Positions 3-13,842 are shown, numbered from the stretch's first letter. The stretch is 64,000 bases of DNA from Methanobacteriota archaeon (GCA_020697715.1 JAEHCO010000005.1:55304-119303); one strand, 5' to 3'. Numbers and translations are program-made. The notes: a model not told the origin generated them from the sequence alone.

Positions 3-797
3 ATCAGCGGAGGTAGATACCCCGGAGCTATCACCGGAAAGCCTGTTGGAATGGGCGGCTCACTTGGCCGAACTGAGGCAACAGGTTATGGTGTAGTATT
101 TGTGCTGAGAGAAGCCCTTAAGGAATTAGAGATGGACATATCCAAGACCACAGCTTCTGTCCAGGGATTCGGCAATGTTGCCCAATATGCTATTGAACTC
201 TTTATCAAATATGGTGGAAAAGTCGTTTCAGTCTCTTGCTGGGATCAGAATGACCAAACAACATATGCATTTTTTAAACAAGATGGCATAGATCTGAAAG
301 AATTGAGGAAGATAACCAATCGTTATGGAACAGTGGAAAAATCCAGGGCGGAGGAATTGGGCTACAAGGTATTGCCTGGTGATGACTGGCTGAAGCAGGA
401 TGTAGATATTCTCATACCAGCCGCACTAGAGAACTCGATCCATAAGGACAATGTCAAGGACATAAGCAATAAGGTCAAGATCATTGCAGAAGGTGCTAAT
501 GGACCAACAACACCAGAAGCTGATGAGCATCTCTATAGCAATGATGTTCTGGTGATACCGTGCTTCCTGGCCAATGCAGGCGGAGTGGTATGTAGCTACT
601 TCGAACAGGTCCAATCCAATACCAATTATTTCTGGCCAAAGGACGAGGTCCTGGGAAAGCTGGACGATAAGATGACAGATGCCTACTATGCAGTCATCGA
701 ACTGAAAAAGAGAAGAAATATTCCTATGCGAGATGCGGCCTATATGATCGCCATATCGCGCGTAGCAGAGGCCTGCCATTTACGTGGCTGGGCATGA
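3..797 (+). CDS. gdhA: Glutamate dehydrogenase (Glu/Leu/Phe/Val dehydrogenase family), 5'-truncated by window edge
   Basis: Frame is open from position 3 (ISGGRYPGAITGKPVGMGGSLGRTEATGYG). Contains VQGFGNV dinucleotide-binding motif, DILIPAALEN, IAEGANGP and LANAGGVVCSYFE. Confidence 0.93.
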   Translation: MSGGRYPGAITGKPVGMGGSLGRTEATGYGVVFVLREALKELEMDISKTTASVQGFGNVAQYAIELFIKYGGKVVSVSCWDQNDQTTYAFFKQDGIDLKELRKITNRYGTVEKSRAEELGYKVLPGDDWLKQDVDILIPAALENSIHKDNVKDISNKVKIIAEGANGPTTPEADEHLYSNDVLVIPCFLANAGGVVCSYFEQVQSNTNYFWPKDEVLGKLDDKMTDAYYAVIELKKRRNIPMRDAAYMIAISRVAEACHLRGWA

Positions 798-813
798 TAA
801 TGGAAAGGGAACG

Positions 814-3800
814 ATGATCAAAAAATTCGATGAGATCGAAAAGATCATAGCTGAAGCAGCTAATAACAAAAAGGCAGGGGAGGTTAGTTCAACCTCGAGA
901 GCAGGTAGCACTGCCTCTCCACGCCTCATCAGGAATATTCTCCTACTTTGTACTGAATATGATTATTTCATTCTGGAGGAGGAGGGTAGATTGACATCAC
1001 TCTTTCGTAAGATGTACGACCACATTGGGGGTAACCCCCCAAAGATAATCAAGGCAGAAAATGAGAAAGCCTTGTTGTCCATCCTGAAAACAAAGGACAT
1101 TGATGTTCTGATCATGTTCAAACCTCCAATTGAAATGGATGCATTTGCCCTGGCCAGGAAGGTTAAAGATCAAAAACCAGATCTGCCAATAGTTCTGGTT
1201 GATAATAATACAGAAGACCTTGATGAGCTGGTTGAAGCAAATACTGGTGAAACCATTGATTGGATATTCACATGGTTCGGTGATGGTAAGATATTCCTTA
1301 ACATAACACAGTTCATAGAGGATCAGCAAAATTTTGGATCAGATACACCAATTCTCCCTCAAAGAGTGCTGATCATTGCCGAGTCTCCAAGATATTATTC
1401 TAATCTATTGTCAGAGGCCTATGAAGCAATATGGGGTCAACTTAACAGTATTTTGCCAGAGGATATGCCATCTCCTTTGGAAAGCAGGCTCAGAAGGAGA
1501 TATCCCCAGGTCCTTATTGCAGATTCCACCAAAGTAGCCAAAACGATATTTGCTGAAAACCTAGACGATATTCTCTGTGTTATAATCGACATTGACCAAT
1601 CTAATATTGAGAAAAATGAATCATTACTATATCAATTCATAGAAAGAGTTGTAGAGACCAAACCTTCAGCTCCTACGTTGTTGTTATCCTCAGATTCTAA
1701 TTGGCAATCAATGTCAGAATCAAGTGAAATAGATTTCTTACAAAAGGGCTCTCCTAATTATATTGGCAAGATACGGAACTTCATTCAGGATTCTTTGGGT
1801 TCCAAGGACTTATCCATTTCGGATAAGGATGGAGCAGAATTGATAAGAATTGAAGATATCAAGACCTTTGAAAAAGCCATTTGGACAATGCCTGCCCCCA
1901 TCCTTCTAGATCACTCTCACAACAATAGTTTGATAAGATGGCTTATTTCGAGATTGGAGTTCGAGCTAGCACATGAATTTAAAACCATTATTTCAATAGA
2001 AGATGAGCCTGAAATACTCCGAAAGAACATGACCGATGCCATGGAACAACACAGGCGAGATCTCAATAAGGGGGTGGTATCAAAATACTCTCGAAGAACC
2101 TATGGAGAGCATTCAAGATTCTGTCGGATCGGCAAAGGTGCCATGGGGGGAAAGGCTAGAGGGCTTGCTTTCATGGACAAGATAATATCAAATTATCTGG
2201 AGAATGGCTTGTTCAGGAATTTGAATATCTCAATGCCCAGGACCATTGTCATCTGTTCGGATATCTTCGATTCATTCCTTGAGGATAATGACCTGGTTAA
2301 CGAAGAGCTCTACTTCATGTCTGATGAAAGAATAGCAATGAAATTCATGGAAGCTGACCTACCACCAATATTACTTGGTGATCTTAGAGCCTTCGTCAGA
2401 GAGACAAAGGTTCCCATTGTCGTACGTTCGTCAAGCCTACTGGAGGATGCTTTGAACCATCCATTTGCAGGGGTTTATTCATCCCTTCTTCTACCAAATG
2501 AATCATGGGAAACAGATCTAAGATTCCAGGAGCTTTGCAATGCTGTAAAATATGTGTTTGCCTCAGTCTTCTTCCAAAAGGCCAGAACTTACATGGAAAC
2601 AACCCCCAACACGATAGAGGATGAGAAGATGGCTGTCATTATCCAGGAACTCATTGGCCAGAAATATGGTGATGTTTTCTACCCCACGATTTCCGGTGTA
2701 ACGAAATCATACGAATATTATCCATCTGGCTCATGTAAGAACACAGATGGTGTGGTCAACTTGGCTTTGGGGCTAGGGAAGGCCGTGGTAGATGGAAGTA
2801 GCACATTCAGGTTCTGCCCGATGCATCCCAAGGTCCACAAATACGGAACTGTGAAAGAACTTCTGGGTCAATCCCAAAAGAAGTTCTATGCTGTGGATCT
2901 GACCTCTTATGTTAATATTGTTCAGCGGGATGAGGATAGTGCCTTGGTCAAATTAGACTTGACAACAGCTGAGGAGCATGGCATACTGGATCATACGGCC
3001 TCTACATATTCGAATGAAAGATTATATCCCGGAATTGGGAGAGATGGTTCCAGAGTCATTGATTTCGCACCCATTCGTGAGCTGGGTATCATACCCCTTC
3101 CTAAGGCGATCCACATGCTCCTTCAAGTCGGTGAAATAGCCATAGGAACACCAGTGGAGATAGAATTTGCAGTCAATATCCATCCAGAACCCAAGCGACC
3201 AGTCGATCTATATCTGTTACAAATTAGAAGTATGTTCTCCAATGTGGCTACCCAGGAAGTGGAGATCGGCCAGCATGATGAGAAGAATATCATCTGCTAT
3301 ACCGAGAATGTGCTTGGTAATGGTATAATTGATAATATCAAGGATATTGTTTTTGTCAAGCCTGAAGGATTTGAATTATCCAAAAACCAATCCATTGTTC
3401 CACAGATAAGGAAATTGAATAAAAAATTGATGGAAAGTAAAACCCCATACATTCTGATAGGCCCAGGCCGATGGGGATCCACAGACCAATGGCTAGGAAT
3501 ACCAGTAACCTGGAGTGACATAGCAGGAGCGAAGATCATAGTAGAAACCCCTGTGAAAGAGAGAATAATCGATCCATCCCAGGGTTCGCATTTCTTCCAT
3601 AATATGACATCCGCTCACATCGGATATTTCACAATAACTCCATTTGGAAAAGGAACCATTGATTGGGATTGGCTGGGAGAACTTCCCACTGCTGAAGAGA
3701 CCGAGAATCTGAAGCATATTCGCTTTGACACTCCCTTGGAAGTACGAATAGATGGCAATCATGGTCTCGGTGTGATACTGAAAAAGCTTTCGAAAGAAGT

Positions 3801-3825
3801 AATGGAGGTTGCTGAAGATGAATGA
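814..3825 (+). CDS. PEP/pyruvate-binding (PPDK_N, ATP-grasp) dikinase-like protein with N-terminal receiver-like domains; no C-terminal PEP-binding barrel
   Basis: GGKARGLAF, VRSSSLLED..FAGVY, EKMAVIIQE and VEIEFAV..LYLLQIR motifs; C-terminal IGPGRWGS and SQGSHFF. ATG 814 after the gdh stop is preferred over the track's GTG 784. Confidence 0.85.
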   Translation: MIKKFDEIEKIIAEAANNKKAGEVSSTSRAGSTASPRLIRNILLLCTEYDYFILEEEGRLTSLFRKMYDHIGGNPPKIIKAENEKALLSILKTKDIDVLIMFKPPIEMDAFALARKVKDQKPDLPIVLVDNNTEDLDELVEANTGETIDWIFTWFGDGKIFLNITQFIEDQQNFGSDTPILPQRVLIIAESPRYYSNLLSEAYEAIWGQLNSILPEDMPSPLESRLRRRYPQVLIADSTKVAKTIFAENLDDILCVIIDIDQSNIEKNESLLYQFIERVVETKPSAPTLLLSSDSNWQSMSESSEIDFLQKGSPNYIGKIRNFIQDSLGSKDLSISDKDGAELIRIEDIKTFEKAIWTMPAPILLDHSHNNSLIRWLISRLEFELAHEFKTIISIEDEPEILRKNMTDAMEQHRRDLNKGVVSKYSRRTYGEHSRFCRIGKGAMGGKARGLAFMDKIISNYLENGLFRNLNISMPRTIVICSDIFDSFLEDNDLVNEELYFMSDERIAMKFMEADLPPILLGDLRAFVRETKVPIVVRSSSLLEDALNHPFAGVYSSLLLPNESWETDLRFQELCNAVKYVFASVFFQKARTYMETTPNTIEDEKMAVIIQELIGQKYGDVFYPTISGVTKSYEYYPSGSCKNTDGVVNLALGLGKAVVDGSSTFRFCPMHPKVHKYGTVKELLGQSQKKFYAVDLTSYVNIVQRDEDSALVKLDLTTAEEHGILDHTASTYSNERLYPGIGRDGSRVIDFAPIRELGIIPLPKAIHMLLQVGEIAIGTPVEIEFAVNIHPEPKRPVDLYLLQIRSMFSNVATQEVEIGQHDEKNIICYTENVLGNGIIDNIKDIVFVKPEGFELSKNQSIVPQIRKLNKKLMESKTPYILIGPGRWGSTDQWLGIPVTWSDIAGAKIIVETPVKERIIDPSQGSHFFHNMTSAHIGYFTITPFGKGTIDWDWLGELPTAEETENLKHIRFDTPLEVRIDGNHGLGVILKKLSKEVMEVAEDE

Positions 3826-6800
3826 TGGCCAGATATCAGGAAATGGTGCAGAACAGAGGCTTGAAGAGAGAATAAAGGAGCTCAATTGCATATATGGTAT
3901 ATCCGCAATCACTCAAGATGAAAGCATCACCCTAAATGAAGCACTACAGGATATTCTCCAGCTGATCTCCCAAGCTTGGCAGTATCCCAATTCCACATAT
4001 GCTCGAATTATCATAGATGATGAAGTTCATTCAACACCAAATTATAAAGAAACGCCCTGGCTACAATCAACCCAAATAAAGCATGGAGGAAAAATCAAGG
4101 GCATTATAGAGGTCGGCTATCTTGAAGAGATGCCAGCCATGGATGAAGGACCATTCTTAGCAGAGGAAAGAAAGTTACTCAAAGCCATTTCAGAGTTGAT
4201 TGGAAACTTCATTGCACAAAGACAGATCCGTGATAGACTAAATAATAACAATAATAACATCAACAAGGCAGCTGATAAAGATGACTGGGAAATAATCTTG
4301 GGCATATTGATGAAGACAGACCCAAGAAGTTCTCTTCGAATTACAAGGCGCATGATATATCATCTTTACAGAATCCAGAACGAAGAAATTGCAGCTATTG
4401 TGAACAGTATATGCCAGCTGGACGAGGCAGATTCTGAGTGGTGTGGGATCAATATACCCAATCCCAGAAAGGATATTGTAGCCTTGAAAAAAATACAAGC
4501 AGAGGTTTTTAAAATTGCGAAGGACGCTTTACCACCTGAGGAGATATCAAATCTATTCAATATGTGGCTGAAGGCTGATAAAGCTCGCCCTCTTCTTCTG
4601 GCTTCTCAAAAGCAAAGTATTCCTTTGACAGAGATCACAAGTGAACTCAATAGGTTCTGGGATATGCCGGAGGATGCCAGAACACTACTTCCTGAGGATG
4701 ATATATCCATATCCACAGCCCTCATACGTCGATTTTTCACCAGTAGGCTTGATTTCATCAACAATGCAAAAAAATACATTGGTGTTGGAGATTTTGTCAG
4801 TCTTTTAAAGACAGTTGTTGGTCCCCCTGAAGGAGAAGGAAAGCTGGGTGGAAAGATATCTGGTGTATATCTTGCTGAAAAAATAATCGAGATGGAAAAA
4901 ATAACCCATGAGCACCTGCGGGATGTGAAATTCGCTGATAGCTGGTATATCACTTCAGACACACTGATAGATGTGATCCATTACAATGATCTGGATGATA
5001 TGGTACACATAAAATATCTTGATCCAAGCGAGATACGCCAGGAGCACCCATTTCTGGAACAACTCTTCAAAAATTCAATATTCCCTCCTGAGATCGAGAA
5101 AGGCCTTAACAGGATATTGAGAAATATTGGAGACAATCCAATAATCGTAAGGTCATCCAGCCTTCTTGAGGACAGCTTTGGAGCTGCATTCTCTGGAAAA
5201 TACAAAAGCTTGTTTTTGGTCAATAAGGGTACATTGGAGGAAAAGAGAAACGCACTCATGGATGCAATATTAGAGGTTTATGCATCTACATTTGCCCCGG
5301 ATCCCATTGAATACAGGAGAGAGCGTGGACTCCTTGACTTCTCGGAAGAGATGGGGATATTGATCCAGAAGGTCGTTGGAACGAAAATAGGCCCTTATTA
5401 CATCCCGGCATTTGCAGGTGTGGCCTTCAGCAACAATGAGTTCCGATGGTCTCCGAGAATAAGAAGAGAGGATGGAATAATCAGAATGGTCGCTGGCCTT
5501 GGAACAAGAGCTGTGGATAGGGTCGGAGATGATTATCCTGTATTGGTATCTCCCAATAAGCCAGATATTCAGGTGAATGCCCTTGTTGATGAATCTATTC
5601 AATATTCACAGCATTTCATGGATGTCATTAATATTGAAAAGGGAACCTTTGAAACAGTAAGCTCCCTGGATCTCATTAGAGAATATTGGGATGTTTATCC
5701 AATAATAACCAAAATAGTTTCCATACATCGTGATGGAATACTCAGACCAGTCACAGGTGTATTGATGGATATCGAAGATGCGGATCTTGTCATAACCTTC
5801 TCTGGGTTGATAGAAAAAACTTCTTTCATCAAACAGATCAAAAGTGTTTTAAATATTTTGCAGGAAAAGATGGGAACCCCAGTAGACGTGGAGTTCGCAC
5901 ACGATGGTGAAAAACTTCACATATTACAGTGTCGTCCTCAAAGCTTTGGCAAGGAGACAGTACGAGTCCCAATACCAAAGAACATACCCAATAACAGGAA
6001 GATATTCTCAGCAAGTAAATACGTAACTAACAGCCACATAAAAAATATCGAATATATGGTCTATGTGAGGCCTAGTGCATATGATGCTTTGAGCGAGAGA
6101 AACGATATGCTGAATGTGGCCAAAGCCGTGGGTGGTCTAAATAAGGCTCTTCCAAAAGGTAGGTTCATCCTAATGGGGCCTGGCCGATGGGGAAGCCGAG
6201 GAGACATCAAGTTGGGTGTGCCTATTTCATATAGTGACATTAACAACACTTCACTTCTGATAGAGATAGCTATCAAAAAAGGAGGTTATCTACCTGACCT
6301 CTCCTTTGGCACGCACTTCTTCCAGGATCTCGTCGAGGCAGATATCCATTATCTACCACTTTATCCTGACGATCCAGATTCTATATTCAATGAAAATCTG
6401 ATGAACATGGCCCCCAATAGGCTTGGTGAATTACTACCAAAATACAAGGATATGGAACATGTGATCCAGGTAATTCAGATCGCAGATATCTCTGATGGTG
6501 GGACCATGAATGTCGTAATGGACGGGGAAGCGAATGATGCACTTGCCTATGTCATGCCACCTGATCACTGGACCTGGAGGATGAAGAAGGTCGAGGAATT
6601 AGGCAATATGCTGGATGCCGAATTGTATGGGGTTGAAGCATTTTATGTCTTCGGGAGCACCAAAGAAGCAACTGCTGGCCCGGCAAGTGACATTGATCTT
6701 CTGATACATTTCAACGGAAATGAGGAACAGAGAGAGAGTCTTCTATCCTGGCTCCATGAACGTGGTGTCAAGTTGGGAAAGGAGAATAAAGAAAGGACAG

Positions 6801-6934
6801 GGGGCCAGACAGATGACATACTGGATGTTCACATAATCACAGATGAAGATATTAAGAACAAGAGTTCATGGGCAGTGCATATTAACTCTCCTCATAGTGC
6901 TGCAAAGAAGATACCATTAAGAAATGATAACTAA
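3818..6934 (+). CDS. Second PPDK_N dikinase-like protein, with N-terminal sensor-like region and C-terminal pol-beta-type nucleotidyltransferase domain
   Basis: GKLGGK, VRSSSLLEDSFGAAFSGKY, EEMGILIQ, VDVEFAH..LQCRP, MGPGRWGS and SFGTHFFQD motifs. C-terminal FYVFGS...ASDIDLLIH...LDVHII is the NTase hG[GS]-DxD-D signature. Start 3818 (ATG) or 3809 (TTG); overlaps the upstream stop. Confidence 0.82.
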   Translation: MNDGQISGNGAEQRLEERIKELNCIYGISAITQDESITLNEALQDILQLISQAWQYPNSTYARIIIDDEVHSTPNYKETPWLQSTQIKHGGKIKGIIEVGYLEEMPAMDEGPFLAEERKLLKAISELIGNFIAQRQIRDRLNNNNNNINKAADKDDWEIILGILMKTDPRSSLRITRRMIYHLYRIQNEEIAAIVNSICQLDEADSEWCGINIPNPRKDIVALKKIQAEVFKIAKDALPPEEISNLFNMWLKADKARPLLLASQKQSIPLTEITSELNRFWDMPEDARTLLPEDDISISTALIRRFFTSRLDFINNAKKYIGVGDFVSLLKTVVGPPEGEGKLGGKISGVYLAEKIIEMEKITHEHLRDVKFADSWYITSDTLIDVIHYNDLDDMVHIKYLDPSEIRQEHPFLEQLFKNSIFPPEIEKGLNRILRNIGDNPIIVRSSSLLEDSFGAAFSGKYKSLFLVNKGTLEEKRNALMDAILEVYASTFAPDPIEYRRERGLLDFSEEMGILIQKVVGTKIGPYYIPAFAGVAFSNNEFRWSPRIRREDGIIRMVAGLGTRAVDRVGDDYPVLVSPNKPDIQVNALVDESIQYSQHFMDVINIEKGTFETVSSLDLIREYWDVYPIITKIVSIHRDGILRPVTGVLMDIEDADLVITFSGLIEKTSFIKQIKSVLNILQEKMGTPVDVEFAHDGEKLHILQCRPQSFGKETVRVPIPKNIPNNRKIFSASKYVTNSHIKNIEYMVYVRPSAYDALSERNDMLNVAKAVGGLNKALPKGRFILMGPGRWGSRGDIKLGVPISYSDINNTSLLIEIAIKKGGYLPDLSFGTHFFQDLVEADIHYLPLYPDDPDSIFNENLMNMAPNRLGELLPKYKDMEHVIQVIQIADISDGGTMNVVMDGEANDALAYVMPPDHWTWRMKKVEELGNMLDAELYGVEAFYVFGSTKEATAGPASDIDLLIHFNGNEEQRESLLSWLHERGVKLGKENKERTGGQTDDILDVHIITDEDIKNKSSWAVHINSPHSAAKKIPLRNDN

Positions 6935-7785
6935 TCTATTGAGATAAGTTCTCTTGTTGCATTGGCCAGGTCATCTGTATCGAACCTTATCAAAGCGATC
7001 TCTGAACCATCATGGGCAGCATTGAAGGAGTGCGTTTTCCCTTTCATTTCACGCCATTGGCCAGTCAATCTGGCAGATTCATGAATATGCCCATGCAGTG
7101 TGAGCAATGGCTGTTTTTCATCTATGAAACGCTGAACCGCGATACTTCCCACATGAATGTCCATGGGGGCATGATCAACTTTCATGCCATCCAATGCCGC
7201 CCTATCTAAATTGGAATCATAAGGTGGAGCGTGGAATAGGTAAATCGTCCTATCTGGGGGAGAGGCCAGGGCTAGCTTTTTTAGATCATTGGCAATGGTG
7301 GCTGTTCTGATTTCTTTTTCAGGTACTTGCACTGTACGGACACCTTCCTCTGGTGAAACACAGCCCACATCCACATGTCTTGAAACATCATAACGCTCCC
7401 AATCCTTGAATTGGAATGGAGTGGGGTTAACATAAGAATAGCCAGTGATGTACAAATTATCAAAAGAAATTGTACGATCGTGCAGATATTCTATCAATCC
7501 GGATTTATCTGCCTCTAGGAACAATGCTTCATACTGGCGTGGGTCATCATTCCCCATTATGACGAAGAAACGAGTTTTGGATCCATTGGCTTCTGAATAA
7601 ACCTTGATAAGTGAAAATAATTCATTCTCTAAGAAGAGCTCTGGGTCTTCCTCCATCCCCAAGCCACTTGGGAAGATATCCCCTCCAAACAAAACTGCAT
7701 CTGGCTCTTCGATGGAAATTATCTTAAATAATTTCCTGTATTTGTCAACATTCCCATGTAGGTCCGAGACGAAAAAGCATTTCAA
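6931..7785 (-). CDS. Calcineurin-like (Icc-related) metallophosphoesterase
   Basis: SDLHG, GGD, GNDD, FHAPP and HGHIHE motifs. Stop codon overlaps that of the upstream dikinase-NTase gene. Confidence 0.9.
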   Translation of the reverse strand: MKCFFVSDLHGNVDKYRKLFKIISIEEPDAVLFGGDIFPSGLGMEEDPELFLENELFSLIKVYSEANGSKTRFFVIMGNDDPRQYEALFLEADKSGLIEYLHDRTISFDNLYITGYSYVNPTPFQFKDWERYDVSRHVDVGCVSPEEGVRTVQVPEKEIRTATIANDLKKLALASPPDRTIYLFHAPPYDSNLDRAALDGMKVDHAPMDIHVGSIAVQRFIDEKQPLLTLHGHIHESARLTGQWREMKGKTHSFNAAHDGSEIALIRFDTDDLANATRELISID

Positions 7786-7958: not shown

Positions 7959-8867
7959 GTGAATGATACATTTAAAGGCATGGTGCATACTGTGTTAAAC
8001 TCAAATGGATCAATGATCGATACTATCAAGAAAAGAACATCTGTTAGAACATATGATGAGCAGAAAATAACAGAAGAGATCTTTGACCAAATAACGATCA
8101 TACTAAAGAAATTCGAGGCTGAGCCAGGTCCCTTTGGAAATTATTCAAGATTTCAGATCCTGAAGCTCGATAATGAAGAGTCTCACCAAGGAGTGAAACT
8201 GGGCACTTATGGTTTTATTAAAGGTCACATGGCCTATCTTGTGGCGATTTGCTCAAAAGAGAACGAGGCCATAATCGATATGGGATATTCTTTTGAGAAG
8301 GTGATCCTGAACATGACACAGATGGGGCTGGGCACATGCTGGATCGGGGGCACATTCAGCCGAGAATCTTTCATGAAATTCATCGATCTAAAGGACAATG
8401 AATTCATTGGCGCTATCTCACCAATTGGTTATGGTTCAGATAATAATAGGATCAAGGAAAAAATTATCAGAAGAACCGCAGGTGCGGACAATAGAAAATC
8501 CTGGGATCAGATGTTTTTCAAAAATGACTTTTCAACAGAGCTGAAAAAAGAACATGCTGGGGAATTGGAGATCGCATTCGAAATGGTGAGATGGGGGCCA
8601 TCAGCATCCAATAAACAACCCTGGCGACTTATGTTGGTTGAAGAACAGGACATACGAACAATTCATTTTTATCTGGATTTTGACCCAAAATACACTGGCA
8701 ATACTAAGCTGGGATATCCCATACAGAAACTTGACATCGGGATCGCCATGAGTCATTTCGAGGTCTCGGCAATAGAACTCGAAAAAGCAGGAAAATGGGT
8801 ATTTGAGGAGCCAGATATGAAGAAGATAAATGATCAATATGAATATGTCGGTAGCTATTCGATATAA
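7959..8867 (+). CDS. Nitroreductase family protein
   Basis: IKKRTSVRTY, GLGTCWIGG and GPSASNKQPW motifs. True start may be downstream (e.g. ATG 7980). Confidence 0.88.
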   Translation: MNDTFKGMVHTVLNSNGSMIDTIKKRTSVRTYDEQKITEEIFDQITIILKKFEAEPGPFGNYSRFQILKLDNEESHQGVKLGTYGFIKGHMAYLVAICSKENEAIIDMGYSFEKVILNMTQMGLGTCWIGGTFSRESFMKFIDLKDNEFIGAISPIGYGSDNNRIKEKIIRRTAGADNRKSWDQMFFKNDFSTELKKEHAGELEIAFEMVRWGPSASNKQPWRLMLVEEQDIRTIHFYLDFDPKYTGNTKLGYPIQKLDIGIAMSHFEVSAIELEKAGKWVFEEPDMKKINDQYEYVGSYSI

Positions 8868-9035: not shown

Positions 9036-10682
9036 ATGAGTTTGATCATCCCCATATTAGCCGCGATCGCCGCGGTTGCAGGCATATTGACCAATGCGTT
9101 CATTATCGAGTCTGACAGGTCAGACTGGAATGAGGTCTTGAAAAAGGTTATGATCATCGGTCTGGTGATCGGCATAGCATTTGGAGTTTTGAACTACTTC
9201 ATAATGATCAAGACCTATGCGATCAACCTGGTCTTTGTTTTCACTTTCTTATTCATAATCGGGTTCTGGATATCATATGGATTATTTAGTTCAAAAAAGG
9301 TATTTCCAGGAATTGCCGCGATCATCGTGCTGGTCATACTTTTACTATCACCTTATGCAATGACCAAGCAATTGTATGAACTGGCAGATGTGGAGGTTGC
9401 CACTGAAAAACCCATGGTAATTGACACCTCCCATCTTAGACAGGTCAACTACGAATATGCAAAATGGAAGGCGGATAAAGTAGTGGGTGAGATGGGAAAT
9501 AGAGTGATGATCGGAGAATTGGAGATCATTCTTTTCCAGGGGAGATTGACATGGGTCTGTCCCCTCATACACAGAGGCATTTTCAAGCAATGGGAATATG
9601 ATATCACACCCGGATATATCCTGGTGGATGGAGAGGATCCCACCAAAGAAGCTATACTTGTGGATGATTATGATATCGATTATTCCTACGAAAATGAATT
9701 CTTCAGCGAGTACATGCACAGGATAGTTTACAATGAATATCCAGACCATAATCAATATTGGTCCTTCGAGATCGATGAAACGGGAGCGCCATGGGTCATC
9801 GTCACACTCAGCCAGCCCACAGTCTCATACCGTGGAGATGTGGCAGATACTGTAGTGGTCGTGTCTCCCCTGAACAAGACCATGACAAGCTATCCATTTG
9901 GATCGCAACCTGATTGGATAGACAATGCATTCCCGGAGGAGCTGGCGGAGAAATATTGTGAGTGGTGGGGAAGCTACAAGCATGGCTTCTGGAACACCCT
10001 TGTTACTGAGAAGGATGTTAAGAGACCGACTGCGAAGAACAATGCCTATTCCCAGGATGGTGCAGGTTATTTCGGCACCGATGTTTACATGATAGTCGGA
10101 AAAGACAATCAATCTTACTGGTTCACGGATTTCACATCACCAGCCAGCTCGGATCAGAGCATGGTGGGTTACGCTTTGATAAATACACAGACCGGTAAAA
10201 TGAACTTCTATGAAGTTACTGGACTTCTCAATGGGGATGCCGCAATGGAAGCCGCGACCGCGAAAGTGACCAATTTTGTAGGTTGGTATGCGACACAACC
10301 CATATTCCTGATAATTGATGGAAATGAGACCTGGTTCACCCCGATCCATTCTGGAACGAACATATTGCAGAAGGTGGCACTGGTCCAAGCTCTTGATGGG
10401 AAGGTCATAATGGGTGACACCCTGGAAGAAGTTCTGGCACAGTTCGATTTTGATAACATTGTTCCAGCAGACGTCAATTCAACAATAATCACCTTGAATG
10501 GTACTGTGAATGACATTCACTCATATGTTGTGGATGGAGAAACTGAATGGTATCTGGATATCAATGGAACCGTGGTATACGCTTACTCCAACACCCAGCC
10601 TTTCCTGATCAATGTGGGGAACCATGTGACCGTCGAATACCAGGTGACTGACAACAGGAATATCATGGTAAGTTGGGATTGA
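9036..10682 (+). CDS. Membrane-anchored hypothetical protein (4 N-terminal TM segments, large extracytoplasmic domain)
   Basis: 548-aa ORF with RBS AAGGAAGG, hydrophobic N-terminal ~110 aa and a beta-rich C-terminus. No family recognised with confidence. Confidence 0.75.
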   Translation: MSLIIPILAAIAAVAGILTNAFIIESDRSDWNEVLKKVMIIGLVIGIAFGVLNYFIMIKTYAINLVFVFTFLFIIGFWISYGLFSSKKVFPGIAAIIVLVILLLSPYAMTKQLYELADVEVATEKPMVIDTSHLRQVNYEYAKWKADKVVGEMGNRVMIGELEIILFQGRLTWVCPLIHRGIFKQWEYDITPGYILVDGEDPTKEAILVDDYDIDYSYENEFFSEYMHRIVYNEYPDHNQYWSFEIDETGAPWVIVTLSQPTVSYRGDVADTVVVVSPLNKTMTSYPFGSQPDWIDNAFPEELAEKYCEWWGSYKHGFWNTLVTEKDVKRPTAKNNAYSQDGAGYFGTDVYMIVGKDNQSYWFTDFTSPASSDQSMVGYALINTQTGKMNFYEVTGLLNGDAAMEAATAKVTNFVGWYATQPIFLIIDGNETWFTPIHSGTNILQKVALVQALDGKVIMGDTLEEVLAQFDFDNIVPADVNSTIITLNGTVNDIHSYVVDGETEWYLDINGTVVYAYSNTQPFLINVGNHVTVEYQVTDNRNIMVSWD

Positions 10683-10761: not shown

Positions 10762-13700
10762 TCAATTCAGCCCTATCAATTCATTCCTGGCCTTCTCTTC
10801 CCATGCCGTCATATCCATGGTTCTGAACATGTCACAGGCCTGATCCAGATATTCCCTGGCCTTTCCTGGATCGCCCATGTCCTTCAGAAGAAGAGCGTGC
10901 TCGTATAGGAGGAATGCGATCTCGATCTTTTCACCCACATCCTGAAGGATCGTCCTGGCCTTTTCAAATTCCACACTGGCCTTGTCCATATCTCCCTTTT
11001 TTCTGTGGATCATACCAAGGGTGCGGAGGCACATTCCTTCTTCCCTCTTCAAGCAAGTTTGAATAGAGGTCTCCAGAGCCTCTGCACCATGACTGGAAGC
11101 CTCATCCATTCTTCCGAGCATCATACTGGCCTCGGCCAATCCACATCGGATCTGGATGATGTGGCGTTTGTCTCCCAGCCCCTTATAGATCTCAAGGCAT
11201 TTATCAAAATATTCCTCGGCATGGTCTGGAGAATTACTGGCCATGTGAAGGAGTGCGATATTATACAGTGATTCTGCAATTCCATGTTTGTCCTTAATAT
11301 TCTCACGGATCTCCAATCCCCTGGTCTGATACTCCAAGGCGATGTCCATATCCCCTCTGTTCATATGCACCAATCCGATATTGCTAAGAGATAGGCCAGT
11401 ACCTTGTTGGTCCCCCATAGCTTCCATGATCTCCAGGCTGCTTTCATAATTCTGCAATGCCTTGCCCATATCGCCCCTGTCCCAGTTAAGATTTCCTAGA
11501 TTTATGAGTGAGAAGGCTATACCGCGCTTGTCCATTACCTTCTCCCTTATCTCCAGACTTCGAGTTTGGCATTCCAGAACAAGGTCCAGGTCTCCTCTTC
11601 TACGATGGATTATACCTATATTGTTAAGCGCGGAGGCTATTCCTGGCAGATTTCCTATCTCCTCCATCAATGCCAGGCTTTTCTCCGAGTATTCAAAAGC
11701 CAGGTCATTCTCACCCTGGCTTATGTAGATATTTCCAACCATTCTGAGAGCATTGGCACTGTCCTTCTTGGCTCCCTCCACATTTTCAAAGGTATCGTAT
11801 GCTCTTTTGAAACGATCCATGGCATCATCATAGGCACCTTTCCTCCAGAAGGCCGAGCCTTCACCAACCAGTATCCTTCCCAATTCCATGGGATTCGTAT
11901 CACTGGCCAGCTCTCTTGCTTGACCAAATAATTCCAGAGATCTGTCGAAATCACCCTTCTTCTCATAGGTCTCACCCGTGCGCCTGAGTATCCGGGTTTG
12001 AATGTCAATGGACTCACCGCCTTCTATGATCCCAGATAGCAGGGTGAGGTTGAGAAGTGCTTCATCATAATCCCCGATCTGTATCTGGATGTCAGCCAAA
12101 CTCTCCAGAATAGAGGGCTTTTCACTATCCTCTATAAATTCCAGAGCATTATTGAATGAGCGTATGGCCTCTTCATTGGCATATCTATCCCGGTACCTAT
12201 TCGCAGCCAGGATGAGATAATGGCCAGCTCTTTTATCTCCAGCCTTTGAGAAATGATAGGCCAGAGGATCGAGAATATCGCCCAATTCATCCTCTCCCAG
12301 ATCCATCATCGCCTCCCCCACCATCAAATGATATTCACTTCTCAGCTCAGTACCGATGCCAGTGTATAGCACATCCCTGATCTTAGCATGATCAAAGATA
12401 TATTTGTCATCAAGATAATTGATAAGGCGATGATTATTCTCTATCTCCCTGAGCGACTTCAGAAGCTTGATACGGTTCAGTTCAAGGGTCCTTCCAACCA
12501 CTACCGATCTGAACTCATTACCGATGACACTAGCACATTCCAGAACATCCATCTGATCCGCCCCCAGCCTATCCAGACGTCGTTTTATAACATCATAGAC
12601 CTTGGATGGAATATCAAGATCCTCCAATGATCTGGTTATCTCCCATTTCCCTTCCTCATTCTGGGCAATGGTACCATCTCCCACCAGAAGCCGGGTTACC
12701 TCAAGAACAAAAAATGGGGTTCCTTCAGTCTCTTTGAATATTCGAGCCAGCAATTCTTTTTCCAGGTGCACCTTACCCAAGGCGGATATTATCATTTCCT
12801 CGGTCTCATTAGATCCCAGTCTTTTCAGCTCGATCCTATTGAATAATGATTCACGGCTCATATTCTGCATCGTGGTTTCCAGATGATGTGGCCTTCCATC
12901 ATCTGTTGCGATGATATCTTCCGGGCGGTAAGTGCCGACCATGAGGACCTTCGATTGCCGGGTGTTTCGAGCCAGATAATGAATCAGGTTGAGAGTCGTA
13001 GGATCCGCCCACTGGAGATCGTCAAAGAATATCAGCAATGGAATATCCATTGCTGTTCTTTGAATTCCCAAGAGTACATTATCAAAGAGATTCTCTTGTT
13101 TTATCTTGGCATCATCAACAAGGAATCTACCATCATATTTTCCAGACCCAGTCAGATCTGCTAACCGGGGAATGAGTGCATCTGCTTCACTCATATTGCC
13201 ACCCCAATTCATCAGAGCCTTTGAAGAATCTTCCAATACACTTCTCATATCGTCTATAAGGAACTCGCTCTCATTCCCCTCGATAACAGCAGCCAGTGAT
13301 ATCTCTCCCAATGATTGGACGAGTATCTTGTATCTGTCATAACCCAATGAACTAAGACCAGCGCCTTTGCCCTTGCCCATCATGGAAAGGGAATCCTGCA
13401 CGAAATCACCGACCGCCTTCAGCATTGATGCAAATATGTCCGGGTCCAGCTCTGTTTCCTCACGTTCGACCTTGGCGACCAGCATACCGGCCTTATTGAT
13501 AAGATATAATGATACCAAAAATGGTGGAGGTGCATCGGACATGACATGGAGTATGTCCAATTCCTTCAATACGGATTTCACAGGCATCAATGGTTCCTGG
13601 CTTTCAGCCAGACACCAGCCTTGGGCGATCTGGATTTCATTTTTTCCAGCCTCTTTAAAAAGCTCATTGACCAGCCTTGTCTTTCCAATACCAGCCTCTC

Positions 13701-13842
13701 CGGATATCAGAACAGTGGATCCATCACCTTCAAGCGACTTCATGAGAGCCTGTGTGAGCTGTGCCAGTTCATTGTGACGGCCTATAAGCTCAGGCTGATT
13801 CAAGGTTGGTCCTTCCATGTAATCATAGAATACCTCGGTCAT
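10762..13842 (-). CDS. STAND-class (AAA_16-like) ATPase with C-terminal TPR array and an inserted longin/roadblock-like domain
   Basis: LIGRHNEL, Walker A GEAGIGKT, Walker B LIFFDDLQWAD, GTPFFVLE and FDHAKIRDVLY motifs, followed by many ~40-aa TPR repeats (ASALNNIGIIH, AFSLINLGNLN). Confidence 0.88.
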   Translation of the reverse strand: MTEVFYDYMEGPTLNQPELIGRHNELAQLTQALMKSLEGDGSTVLISGEAGIGKTRLVNELFKEAGKNEIQIAQGWCLAESQEPLMPVKSVLKELDILHVMSDAPPPFLVSLYLINKAGMLVAKVEREETELDPDIFASMLKAVGDFVQDSLSMMGKGKGAGLSSLGYDRYKILVQSLGEISLAAVIEGNESEFLIDDMRSVLEDSSKALMNWGGNMSEADALIPRLADLTGSGKYDGRFLVDDAKIKQENLFDNVLLGIQRTAMDIPLLIFFDDLQWADPTTLNLIHYLARNTRQSKVLMVGTYRPEDIIATDDGRPHHLETTMQNMSRESLFNRIELKRLGSNETEEMIISALGKVHLEKELLARIFKETEGTPFFVLEVTRLLVGDGTIAQNEEGKWEITRSLEDLDIPSKVYDVIKRRLDRLGADQMDVLECASVIGNEFRSVVVGRTLELNRIKLLKSLREIENNHRLINYLDDKYIFDHAKIRDVLYTGIGTELRSEYHLMVGEAMMDLGEDELGDILDPLAYHFSKAGDKRAGHYLILAANRYRDRYANEEAIRSFNNALEFIEDSEKPSILESLADIQIQIGDYDEALLNLTLLSGIIEGGESIDIQTRILRRTGETYEKKGDFDRSLELFGQARELASDTNPMELGRILVGEGSAFWRKGAYDDAMDRFKRAYDTFENVEGAKKDSANALRMVGNIYISQGENDLAFEYSEKSLALMEEIGNLPGIASALNNIGIIHRRRGDLDLVLECQTRSLEIREKVMDKRGIAFSLINLGNLNWDRGDMGKALQNYESSLEIMEAMGDQQGTGLSLSNIGLVHMNRGDMDIALEYQTRGLEIRENIKDKHGIAESLYNIALLHMASNSPDHAEEYFDKCLEIYKGLGDKRHIIQIRCGLAEASMMLGRMDEASSHGAEALETSIQTCLKREEGMCLRTLGMIHRKKGDMDKASVEFEKARTILQDVGEKIEIAFLLYEHALLLKDMGDPGKAREYLDQACDMFRTMDMTAWEEKARNELIGLN

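Follow-up and report, generated by a model that had tools for sequence, protein, structure and literature searches.

The gdh gene of a Thermoplasmata-like genome is followed by genes for two large dikinase-like proteins, P0002 and P0003, and by a convergent metallophosphoesterase gene; the cassette has a characteristic domain anatomy, its catalytic motifs are intact, and its linkage to gdh is conserved and subtype-specific. We tentatively propose, giving the idea somewhat less than an even chance, that P0002 and P0003 are signal-gated, barrel-less enzymes of the dikinase type that act on GDH, with a nucleotidyltransferase and the phosphoesterase serving as a reversible nucleotidylation arm. 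The module probably controls GDH, because the gene set recurs beside gdh in many bacterial phyla. The window, i.e., the whole stretch of 64,000 nucleotides that was analysed, contains the following features at its beginning:

3..797, + strand: 3' part of gdh (GDH_A type; ELFV_dehydrog E 9e-74), the C-terminal 264 codons, with TGA at 795-797
784-3825, + strand: P0002, type A receiver-dikinase-like protein, 1013 aa from GTG 784, with an ATG at 814
928..1293, + strand: P0002 module 1, putative pseudo-receiver without phospho-acceptor Asp (residues about 49-170; Response_reg E 0.014)
1360..1758, + strand: P0002 module 2, receiver-like, with a D/S/K signature (residues about 193-325; OKR_DC_1_N E 3e-4, sub-threshold)
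2140..3258, + strand: P0002 PPDK_N ATP-grasp domain (residues 453-825; PF01326 E 1.3e-37)
3289..3780, + strand: P0002 swivel-like module with GPGRWGS and GSH936FF (AF2 model pLDDT 89.6; His codon 3589-3591)
3809-6934, + strand: P0003, GAF-like/dikinase-like/nucleotidyltransferase fusion, 1041 aa from TTG 3809, with an ATG at 3818
3845..4255, + strand: P0003 N-terminal GAF-like domain (AF2 model pLDDT 80)
4283..4819, + strand: P0003 helical region between the GAF-like and ATP-grasp domains (helices at model residues 147-325)
4844..5980, + strand: P0003 PPDK_N ATP-grasp domain (residues 346-724; PF01326 E 3.1e-51)
6005..6496, + strand: P0003 swivel-like module with GPGRWGS and GTH836FF, aligning with the P0002 module (His codon 6314-6316)
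6620..6850, + strand: P0003 C-terminal minimal Pol-beta-type nucleotidyltransferase (NTP_transf_2, residues 938-1003, E 4.7e-8)
6931-7785, - strand: convergent metallophosphoesterase, 284 aa (Metallophos E 6.9e-15)

All elements that a sequence-only reading of this DNA had proposed were recovered in place, including the tight packing of the genes: the ATG of P0002 at 814 lies 16 nt past the gdh stop codon, P0003 counted from its ATG at 3818 shares 8 nt with the end of P0002 (stop 3823-3825), and the phosphoesterase stop (complement of 6931-6933) and the P0003 TAA (6932-6934) share four bases. The full gdh encodes 428 aa (P0127), and its start lies outside the window, upstream, at G000:C30:54814. 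The GdhA_Arch match (E 7e-72) stays under the equivalog cut-off, as the window contains only part of the protein. The genome encodes three barrel-less PPDK_N proteins, each of them beside a gdh (3/3), and both strong gdh genes have one; the third paralog of P0002 and P0003 adjoins the second gdh.

The two large proteins had been described as paralogs, which holds for the ATP-grasp and C-terminal part (29% identity over 533 columns, E 8e-42) and fails outside it. PPDK_N was matched in both, and the ATP-grasp domains are intact, as had been claimed: GGK, RSS, E554, E792, E794 and Q813 of P0002 are invariant in 99/99 type A/B proteins, and GGK, RSSSLLED, D693, E695, Q707 and R709 of P0003 are kept in 120/120 NT-type proteins. 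Neither protein matches the PF02896 barrel or PF00391; throughout the genome, these two families were matched only in a true PPDK on contig C28, which is a complete protein of 868 aa with its own ATP-grasp domain, PF00391 and PF02896 barrel. Moreover, against the NCBIfam PEP-synthase models P0002 and P0003 reach 50-57 bits vs cut-offs of 598-883 (best PEP-synthase/PPDK score 56.8 bits vs 883 for NF004881; 52.1 vs 739.75 for TIGR01418). Because both proteins are without the barrel, the lone barrel of the genome resides in a complete PPDK and the scores are far below the cut-offs, we agree with the sequence-only reading that P0002 and P0003 are not PEP synthases. The RIF_Ptrans_rph model scored 16.2 and 31.6 bits (cut-off 999), and neither a rifampin-binding domain nor any other extra domain was found between the ATP-grasp and swivel modules.

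The expected GPGRWGS and G(S/T)HFF motifs are present in both proteins, and the His is conserved throughout: H936, GRWG, E921, S932 and G934 are kept in 99/99 type A/B proteins, and the P0003 swivel motif is invariant in 120/120 NT-type proteins. In the AF2 model of the P0002 module, the shared C-terminal module adopts the fold of a swivelling beta/beta/alpha domain, and the invariant His lies at the start of a helix preceded by a strand. The best VIA-align match of this module was the PPDK phosphoryl-carrier domain 2fm4 (Z 6.3, rmsd 3.8, 116 aligned), besides rifampin phosphotransferase 5hv1 (Z 5.8), maize PPDK 1vbg residues 372-511 (Z 5.8), the pyruvate kinase C-terminal domain 2e28 (Z 5.8) and Enzyme I N-domains (Z 4.9-5.2), all with Z below 8, a range in which, according to the tool, perhaps just a common arrangement is shared. 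Foldseek with the module model gave no match at E 0.001 or better, hhalign profile-profile comparison with 18 real swivel domains gave a probability of 0.15, and a profile search of PDB sequences returned no PEP-utiliser, the top match being the VAMP7 longin domain (E 0.0017). We consider it moderately well supported by the model that the C-terminal module resembles phospho-His carrier domains at the level of fold only, without sequence similarity.

The receiver-like N-terminus that had been ascribed to P0002 stood in part. Its second module carries, by our own assignment of the columns, the D/S/K signature, with D269 kept in 96/99, S/T302 in 96/99 and K321 in 94/99 proteins; the acidic pair of this module is E in 93 and D in 82 of 99 family members and reads A199-E200 in P0002 itself. 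The sequence matches, however, are sub-threshold (for module 1, an NtrC receiver chain at E 0.019 and PF00072 at 16 bits vs a cut-off of 30.2; P0125 reaches 19.8 bits), and module 1 is without an acceptor Asp: at the acceptor-equivalent column (F112 in P0002), which we assigned from sequence only by our own reading of the receiver consensus, M occurs in 62, T in 11, F in 10 and N in 8 of 99 proteins. The sensor-like N-terminus claimed for P0003 is GAF-like by predicted fold; Foldseek with the AF2 model returned the GAF chains 4g3k, 3p01, 3lfv, 8jrc, 3trc and 3ci6 at a probability of 0.99-1.00, with E-values of 5e-3 or weaker and a target TM of 0.5-0.6, and a Pfam search of this N-terminus gave no GAF match. 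Sequence searches with the helical region that follows returned no family match.

P0003 ends, as had been claimed, in an intact minimal nucleotidyltransferase domain over the Pfam cut-offs (NTP_transf_2 33.7 bits vs 21; Polbeta 28.4 bits vs 26.9). Its G949, S950, D961, D963 and D1006, which form a G-S ... D-x-D ... D pattern that we take to be the catalytic signature, are kept in 120/120 NT-type proteins. The convergent gene product is likewise the calcineurin-like phosphoesterase it was thought to be (Pfam 56.4 bits vs a cut-off of 21.5), with metal-site motifs conserved in at least 14/15 orthologs (H10, G35-D36, G78-N79-D80-D81, H185, H211, G232-H233-x-H235). The usual third motif of metallophosphoesterases is GNH(D/E); here it reads GNDD. 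A family-specific insert at residues 115-148 is also conserved in 15 orthologs. Pfam and NCBIfam scans of P0002-P0004 returned no GlnE or GlnD family match. Judging from this conservation, the predicted catalytic residues of the ATP-grasp, swivel, nucleotidyltransferase and phosphoesterase domains are under selection.

Ten related genomes have the full cassette, as do bacteria from several phyla. In the 8 related Thermoplasmata loci fetched, of which two are cut by contig ends, the genes are ordered as wHTH regulator, GDH_A, type A, NT-type and convergent phosphoesterase gene; the P0002 orthologs that follow GDH_A there have 37-51% identity. Among 60 relatives, GDH_A orthologs of at least 67% identity occur in exactly the 10 genomes with a type A gene. 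Genome G011 (89% completeness) gave no dikinase-like match, and its wHTH regulator and GDH_A (62% identity) stand without an adjacent cassette. The core of GDH_A, type A, NT-type and phosphoesterase genes recurs in bacteria labelled Aminicenantes, Chrysiogenia, Phycisphaerae and Acidobacteria, as well as in those labelled Krumholzibacteriia, Eiseniibacteriota and Dehalococcoidia. In every locus with DNA beyond the NT-type gene, the phosphoesterase lies beside that gene; for the GTDB loci this means 8/8, since the contig ends too early in 3 of the 11 that have a real NT-type gene. Both linkages, the one to gdh and the one to the phosphoesterase, are kept in archaea as well as in many bacterial phyla. 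The single receiver-PPDK_N gene beside gdh that had been described for some anaerobic bacteria is both real and common.

Within 600 nt, 37 type B genes pair with GDH_B and 18 type A genes with GDH_A; the remaining 2 pairs are mixed (55/57 specific), both being gene fragments. Such subtype-specific pairing would also arise from co-transfer of whole cassettes. A gdh lies within 8 kb in 42/80 GTDB loci (26/43 with full flanks) and is absent from this distance in 38/80 (17/43 with full flanks); motif counts over these 80 loci are biased, because the loci were fetched with patterns built from the same motifs. Among the type B loci fetched from related Thermoplasmata genomes, 6/15 are without this linkage to gdh. 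Three proteins (P0129, P0130 and P0131), representing three separate 50%-identity clusters, are natural fusions in which a complete NT-type protein is joined to a short type A core. Moreover, there are short type A proteins of about 580 aa that consist of the ATP-grasp and swivel domains alone; they are without receiver modules and keep both the GDH_A linkage and the His motif.

Co-folding of GDH_A with the P0002 core, which had been suggested as a check, passed the mark with a score of 0.54, a pass of the weak class (runs 0.54, 0.36 and 0.57; best of 3 controls 0.00). Contact agreement was at least 97% and partner pLDDT at least 77. The mark is reached by 116/157 solved complexes and 2/215 mismatched pairs, and it is reached at 0.60 or under by 18/157 solved complexes and by both passing mismatches, counts which hold only roughly because we used our own alignments.

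We infer a writer/eraser system from the anatomy and the gene neighbourhood, together with this one weak co-fold pass. The ATP-grasp domains of P0002 and P0003 would load a phosphoryl group from ATP onto the swivel His (H936 and H836, respectively), a step known from PEP synthase, PPDK, rifampin phosphotransferase and the barrel-less VadK. Without a small-substrate barrel, the enzyme would then contact the neighbouring GDH and act on it directly, most probably through phosphoryl transfer; autophosphorylation, target and kind of modification are all putative. P0002 would be gated by its pseudo-receiver and receiver-like module and P0003 by its GAF-like domain, and the two may act in partnership. 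A second arm would consist of the nucleotidyltransferase end of P0003, which would attach a nucleotide to GDH or to the dikinase-like partner, and the phosphoesterase, which would take it off again. The third paralog may do a simpler, one-protein version of the task for the second GDH. The eraser is not general, because the second-GDH pair in this genome is without a phosphoesterase.

A precedent among the closest known systems is VadK (Rv1127c) from Mycobacterium tuberculosis, a barrel-less PPDK relative which, according to the available part of its description, autophosphorylates His422 with ATP and Mg, interacts with methylcitrate-cycle enzymes and is proposed to control metabolic enzymes thereby (PMC13400623). 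It shares with P0002 and P0003 an ATP-grasp and a His-bearing domain without the barrel, although in our proteins the His domain is assigned at fold level only, and the autophosphorylation demonstrated for VadK would be the corresponding step in them. As far as the descriptions can be compared, VadK is of about 50 kDa, has no sensor domains and is presented as a direct PPDK truncation (PMC13400623), whereas P0002 and P0003 have about 1000 aa, receiver or GAF-like inputs and a swivel module with no detectable PF00391 similarity, show linkage to GDH and not to the methylcitrate cycle, and are accompanied by a nucleotidyltransferase and a phosphoesterase.

With PEP synthase and PPDK (PF01326 + PF00391 + PF02896) they share PPDK_N with all conserved motifs and a C-terminal domain of the predicted phospho-His carrier fold class, but they are without the barrel and PF00391 and score an order of magnitude below the NCBIfam cut-offs. 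As in rifampin phosphotransferase (ATP-grasp, substrate domain, C-terminal swivel His domain), to which the 5hv1 match points, the putative carrier is C-terminal to the ATP-grasp domain; the rifampin-binding domain is missing. Enzyme I-Ntr (PtsP), composed of a GAF, a phospho-His domain and a PEP barrel, has a nitrogen-sensing role. It likewise places a GAF-type sensor ahead of a phospho-His carrier that passes phosphate to protein, and the PtsP GAFs 3trc and 3ci6 are among the fold matches of the P0003 N-terminus, a similarity at fold level only; the donor here, however, would be ATP via the ATP-grasp domain and not PEP via the barrel. The likeness to GlnE and GlnD (acting on glutamine synthetase and PII) is one of analogy, i.e., a nucleotidyltransferase and a removing activity directed at a central nitrogen-assimilation enzyme; unlike these, the P0003 nucleotidyltransferase is of the minimal Pol-beta type (about 100 aa), and removal would be by a metallophosphoesterase.

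It is also conceivable, although we consider it unlikely, that GDH stays unmodified and that the proteins bind it and tune it allosterically, the His phosphate remaining in the protein or its paralog, where it would report the ATP/AMP/Pi status or pass to the protein's own receiver Asp. The weak co-fold pass fits stable binding equally well, VadK is described, in the available text, as interacting with its target enzymes with no mention of substrate phosphorylation, and P0002 unites a receiver-like module (D269, S302, K321) and a putative phospho-His carrier in one chain, in a genome with few canonical two-component parts (4 HATPase_c matches, only one of them next to a receiver, and 2 canonical receivers). 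However, since the short type A proteins dispense with receivers, the receiver would be an input that can be exchanged, and it need not be the acceptor; in NT-type proteins a GAF-like domain takes the place of the receivers of type A proteins, and the strictly conserved nucleotidyltransferase and phosphoesterase point to covalent chemistry on some target. A second alternative is a small-molecule dikinase that phosphorylates or nucleotidylates a GDH-linked metabolite, or makes a signal molecule. The superfamily includes barrel-less enzymes that use small or polymeric substrates, and rifampin phosphotransferase, glucan water dikinase and PigC act on substrates other than pyruvate. Such a dikinase would leave the same linkage, which by itself cannot tell action on an enzyme from action on the substrate of that enzyme. 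The best NCBIfam matches, all far below cut-off, include PigC, RedH and rifampin phosphotransferase. We nevertheless regard such a dikinase as improbable: there is no extra substrate-binding domain, the parts outside the ATP-grasp and swivel domains being sensor-like and missing in the 580-aa form, and two GDH families with one and the same reaction each have a paralog subtype of their own, as expected for recognition of a protein and not of a shared metabolite.

Two further explanations have, in our judgement, next to no likelihood. The names 'pyruvate, water dikinase' and 'pyruvate, phosphate dikinase' that some sources give to relatives suggest that the proteins work as conventional PEP synthases or PPDKs, with another chain providing the pyruvate/PEP barrel in trans, but the only PF02896 barrel of the genome is built into the complete 868-aa PPDK, the family scores are those given above, and the swivel module does not resemble genuine swivel domains in sequence. 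A role in anti-phage defence or as a toxin-antitoxin module comes to mind, as minimal nucleotidyltransferases of the P0003 kind often belong to HEPN-MNT pairs; there are domain-level matches of the nucleotidyltransferase end to the PADLOC candidate family PDC-S09 (E 4e-7) and to NCBIfam MntA (E 1.8e-4, 21 bits, cut-off 60), and of the phosphoesterase to PDC-S10 (E 1e-8). Yet the nucleotidyltransferase is fused to a dikinase-like body of 900 aa with no HEPN partner seen, a PADLOC search with P0002 gave no match, and in distant phyla the cassette remains linked to a gene of core metabolism.

GDH stands at the junction of carbon and nitrogen metabolism and is, in many anaerobes including gut and rumen Bacteroidales, a main route of ammonia assimilation. 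In the literature searched, we found no description of the pairing of gdh with barrel-less dikinase-like genes, no experimental study of any family member and no account of a dedicated enzymatic control system for GDH in prokaryotes. If the covalent mechanism that we favor holds, it would follow VadK as the second case in which dikinases have become regulatory kinases, and would offer a testable molecular basis for post-translational control of GDH. A broader form of it, which we find rather doubtful, is an overlooked covalent-modification cascade on GDH, like that on glutamine synthetase, in which dikinase-derived phospho-His enzymes would phosphorylate GDH, the nucleotidyltransferase and metallophosphoesterase would add and remove a nucleotide, and the sensors would read the nitrogen and carbon state, the whole having spread by transfer through archaea and more than 10 bacterial phyla, including gut Bacteroidales; in the latter it would explain old reports of reversible GDH inactivation. 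Family members are labelled PEP synthase, PPDK or 'PEP/pyruvate-binding domain-containing protein' in databases, and metabolic reconstructions that count them as gluconeogenic are therefore probably wrong. The family of the C-terminal module comprises 2361 cluster representatives at E 0.001 or better, of which 1713 are matched at 1e-10 or better.

By their anatomy, read from the sequence, P0002 and P0003 are dikinases in which sensor domains have taken the place of the catalytic end, and their genes are linked to glutamate dehydrogenase (GDH). We regard the system as a probable regulatory enzyme of dikinase descent, and a bolder reading is also conceivable. Window 3-7785 holds four ORFs (host genome of 34 contigs and 2.12 Mb; window at G000:C30:55304-119303), and the named close homologs of the window proteins are labelled Thermoplasmata or Thermoplasmatota. 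The ORFs and the gene ahead of them are listed here.

Features of the locus
L008:8612-9664 (a fetched locus), just upstream of the window and ahead of GDH_A: 350-aa protein with two winged-helix DNA-binding domains
From window position 3: glutamate dehydrogenase (GDH_A), last 264 codons, ELFV_dehydrog E 9e-74
Window 784-3825, + strand: ORF of P0002, 1013 aa
Window 3809-6934, + strand: ORF of P0003, 1041 aa
Window 6931-7785, - strand: ORF of a metallophosphoesterase, 284 aa

The complete GDH_A has 428 aa. The gene junctions were as the sequence-only reading had given them: the gdh stop lies at 795-797 and a possible P0002 ATG start at 814, the P0003 ATG at 3818 gives an 8-nt overlap with the P0002 stop, and P0003 and the metallophosphoesterase are convergent with four bases in common. 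Farther along the window lie a 302-aa TM1586-type nitroreductase-like protein (7959-8867, +), a 548-aa ORF with no Pfam match (9036-10682, +) and, 3 kb past the phosphoesterase, a 1026-aa AAA_16 plus TPR protein of the STAND type (10762-13842, -). A similar 950-aa STAND-type protein (L048:4627-7479, -) directly adjoins the type B gene, a P0002-like paralog, of the related genome G035; the presence of such proteins near both dikinase-like loci may be due to chance.

Both P0002 (type A) and P0003 (NT-type) carry a PPDK_N ATP-grasp domain (Pfam). The C-terminal end of P0003 is a minimal Pol-beta-type nucleotidyltransferase (NTase), and its G-S, D-x-D and third Asp, together with all ATP-grasp motifs, are kept in 120 of the 120 NT-type family members. 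In the model of the P0003 N-terminus (pLDDT 80), the first 135 residues form a GAF-like domain, and some 190 helical residues come next; the GAF matches reach a Foldseek probability of 0.99-1.00, but at E 5e-3 or weaker, no Pfam match was obtained for this N-terminus, and the ESM Atlas returned clusters of its own kind plus a weak GAF lead (0.81). For P0002, a receiver-like N-terminus had been proposed, of which the two alpha/beta modules stand, but the receiver matches stay sub-threshold. Among 99 full-length relatives, module 1 is without an Asp at the acceptor-equivalent position, and module 2 keeps the Asp (96/99), Ser/Thr (96/99) and Lys (94/99) expected of a receiver, with columns assigned by our own reading of the sequence rather than from a structure.

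The two proteins also share a C-terminal swivel-like module, modelled with high confidence (pLDDT 89.6). G-P-G-R-W-G and an Asp, a Glu, a Ser, a Gly and a His are invariant in an alignment of 33 module copies, and short bacterial forms start the motif with G-F-G. Pfam and NCBIfam gave no family match for the module, Foldseek gave no PDB match at E 0.001 or better, and profile-profile comparison (hhalign) with 18 true swivel domains gave a probability of 0.15, that is, no sequence relation; a VAMP7 longin domain from a PDB-sequence profile search (E 0.0017, 65 residues) was taken as chance. An exhaustive VIA-align search ranks phospho-histidine carrier domains at the top, with Z values that are middling by its own calibration: the PPDK carrier domain 2fm4 (Z 6.3, rmsd 3.8, 116/128 aligned), then, at Z 5.8 each, rifampin phosphotransferase 5hv1, maize PPDK residues 372-511 and the carrier-like C-domain of a pyruvate kinase, and Enzyme I N-domains at Z 4.9-5.2; the other rows are mostly further swivelling beta/beta/alpha folds. 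In the model the invariant His (H936 in P0002, H836 in P0003) stands at a helix start after a strand, and the catalytic His of PPDK is similarly placed. Given these top fold matches and the placement of the His, the module is likely a strongly remodelled carrier domain.

With E 0.001 as the limit, a profile search with the module retrieved 2361 cluster representatives, and among the best matches are three database proteins of 1523-1654 aa (P0129-P0131), in which a short type A core is joined to a whole NT-type protein. To judge from these protein sequences, in which assembly or frame errors are possible, such a fusion is a classical sign of two proteins working together. A further database protein, P0192 (1484 aa), likewise known as protein sequence only, appears to be a tandem of two NT-type cores. 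Co-folding with GDH, proposed in the sequence-only reading, gave a pass of a weak class for GDH_A and the ATP-grasp-plus-swivel core of P0002 (score 0.54; runs 0.54, 0.36 and 0.57), with run contacts agreeing at 97% or more and partner pLDDT of at least 77; the best of three controls scored 0.00. Of 157 solved complexes 116 reach the mark, as do 2 of 215 mismatched pairs; scores of 0.60 or below account for just 18 of these complexes and for both mismatched pairs that pass. These counts hold only roughly for our inputs (our own alignments, 18 rows per protein). The predicted contact between GDH_A and the P0002 core is thereby weakly supported.

This genome encodes three PPDK_N proteins that lack the barrel, and it has two strong gdh genes. 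The third paralog, P0125 (986 aa, receiver-dikinase-like), is 35% identical to P0002 over the full length and is convergent with P0126, a 449-aa bacterial-type GDH_B, outside the window (G000:C11:421466-425921; L007:7467-11922); the pair is without an NTase-bearing partner and without a phosphoesterase. A P0002 relative was found in 32 of 61 related genomes, and in the 20 regions examined from these 32 the order winged-helix protein, GDH_A, type A, NT-type, convergent phosphoesterase is kept in 8 loci (2 ending at contig ends) and the GDH_B/type B pair in 9, with 6 type B loci lacking a nearby gdh; in three genomes the GDH_A and GDH_B sets share one cluster. GDH_A orthologs of at least 67% identity occur in exactly the 10 relatives with a type A gene. 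A GDH_A-like gene of 61-62% identity is present in two genomes that gave no match to the dikinase-like proteins; in G011, which is one of the two, the downstream gene differs and lies on the opposite strand. The winged-helix protein precedes GDH_A here, in 7 related Thermoplasmata loci and in L062, and is retained in G011, which is without the dikinase cassette; none was seen in the bacterial cassettes.

The neighbourhood survey that the earlier reading had proposed showed that the core of GDH_A, type A, NT-type and phosphoesterase genes recurs in several bacterial phyla as well as in the Thermoplasmata relatives, some bacterial cores having a 580-aa type A protein without receiver modules. 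Among species-representative genomes, the C-terminal alignment patterns have at least 649 confirmed sites; the 80 best of them (79 bacterial records and one archaeal) are labelled Bacteroidales, including Bacteroides, Parabacteroides, Prevotella and Alloprevotella, and Acidobacteriota, Ignavibacteria, Desulfobacterales, Planctomycetota, Eisenbacteria, Gemmatimonadota, Fibrobacteres, Chloroflexota, Bacillota and others. A gdh lies in the fetched flanks of 42 of these 80 loci (26 of 43 where the flanks are complete), the phosphoesterase adjoins the NT-type gene in 8/8 evaluable loci, and 55 of the 57 adjacent gdh/dikinase-like pairs agree in subtype, all counted in related genomes and motif-chosen loci that are not independent samples. 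Scanning 60 flanking ORFs of 16 loci without nearby gdh revealed no recurrent partner. In an alignment of 18 cassette loci, GDH_A from Thermoplasmata and from bacterial phyla far removed from them is 65-73% identical to this GDH_A, whereas other GDHs of related Thermoplasmata reach only 44-51%; hence, the sequences suggest that the whole cassette moved between archaea and bacteria. In eight Bacteroidales loci (L076, L082, L088, L095, L097, L134, L136 and L138), type B paralogs stand as a tandem pair whose members measure about 1150-1270 aa and about 990 aa; one or two gdh genes often flank the pair. In two others (L100:1762-5457 and L133:1361-5053), type B genes without nearby gdh are directly preceded by the gene of a 1231-aa protein in which GltD-like domains (Fer4_20, Pyr_redox_2) are fused to molybdopterin-oxidoreductase domains.

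What the analysis shows is the anatomy, the conservation and the linkage; from these we infer the chemistry of each step: ATP would load the swivel His, the protein would act on GDH by contact, probably through phosphoryl transfer, the receiver-like and GAF-like modules could serve as a gate, and the NTase and phosphoesterase may add a second arm, one of reversible nucleotidylation. Among studied proteins VadK of M. tuberculosis comes closest; it is, like P0002 and P0003, a barrel-less PPDK relative, which passages of its description report to autophosphorylate His422 with ATP and Mg, and for which the abstract and a section heading state an interaction with methylcitrate-cycle enzymes (PMC13400623).

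In place of phosphoryl transfer to GDH, non-covalent control or an internal relay has a minor chance of being correct, and a small-molecule substrate seems improbable. Ordinary PEP synthesis is scarcely credible here. As the sequence-only reading held, P0002 and P0003 have no PEP/pyruvate barrel: neither has a Pfam match to it or to the PEP-utiliser mobile domain, and their scores with the NCBIfam PEP-synthase, PigC and rifampin-phosphotransferase models are far under the cut-offs. The sole matches to PF00391 and PF02896 in the whole genome lie within one complete PPDK of 868 aa, encoded on a different contig; thus, no barrel would be available in trans except one with its own partner domains. 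A role in defence is rejected as highly implausible, since PADLOC gave the cassette proteins candidate matches at the domain level only.

Our literature search found no published description of the gdh/dikinase-like gene pairing. Reversible in vivo inactivation of GDH has reportedly been seen in Bacteroides fragilis, and the title of a 1996 paper by Baggio and Morrison may point to an early functional clue in Bacteroides thetaiotaomicron, a trans-acting downstream gene. BT_1970-1973 of the latter species were dropped as candidate genes; BT_1971 is a catalase in two papers. Main-text passages of a B. thetaiotaomicron fitness paper (PMC8121099) and of a Prevotella ruminicola nitrogen-use paper (PMC5552732) contain nothing on the dikinase-like genes.

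Searching the PDB sequences with the phosphoesterase yielded no match under E 0.5. Its residues 115-148 (GYxxVNPxPFxFKDWExYDVSR...G...PE.G) are near-invariant in 15 cassette-linked orthologs and lie outside the usual metal-binding motifs; possibly, this conserved stretch is a target-recognition element.
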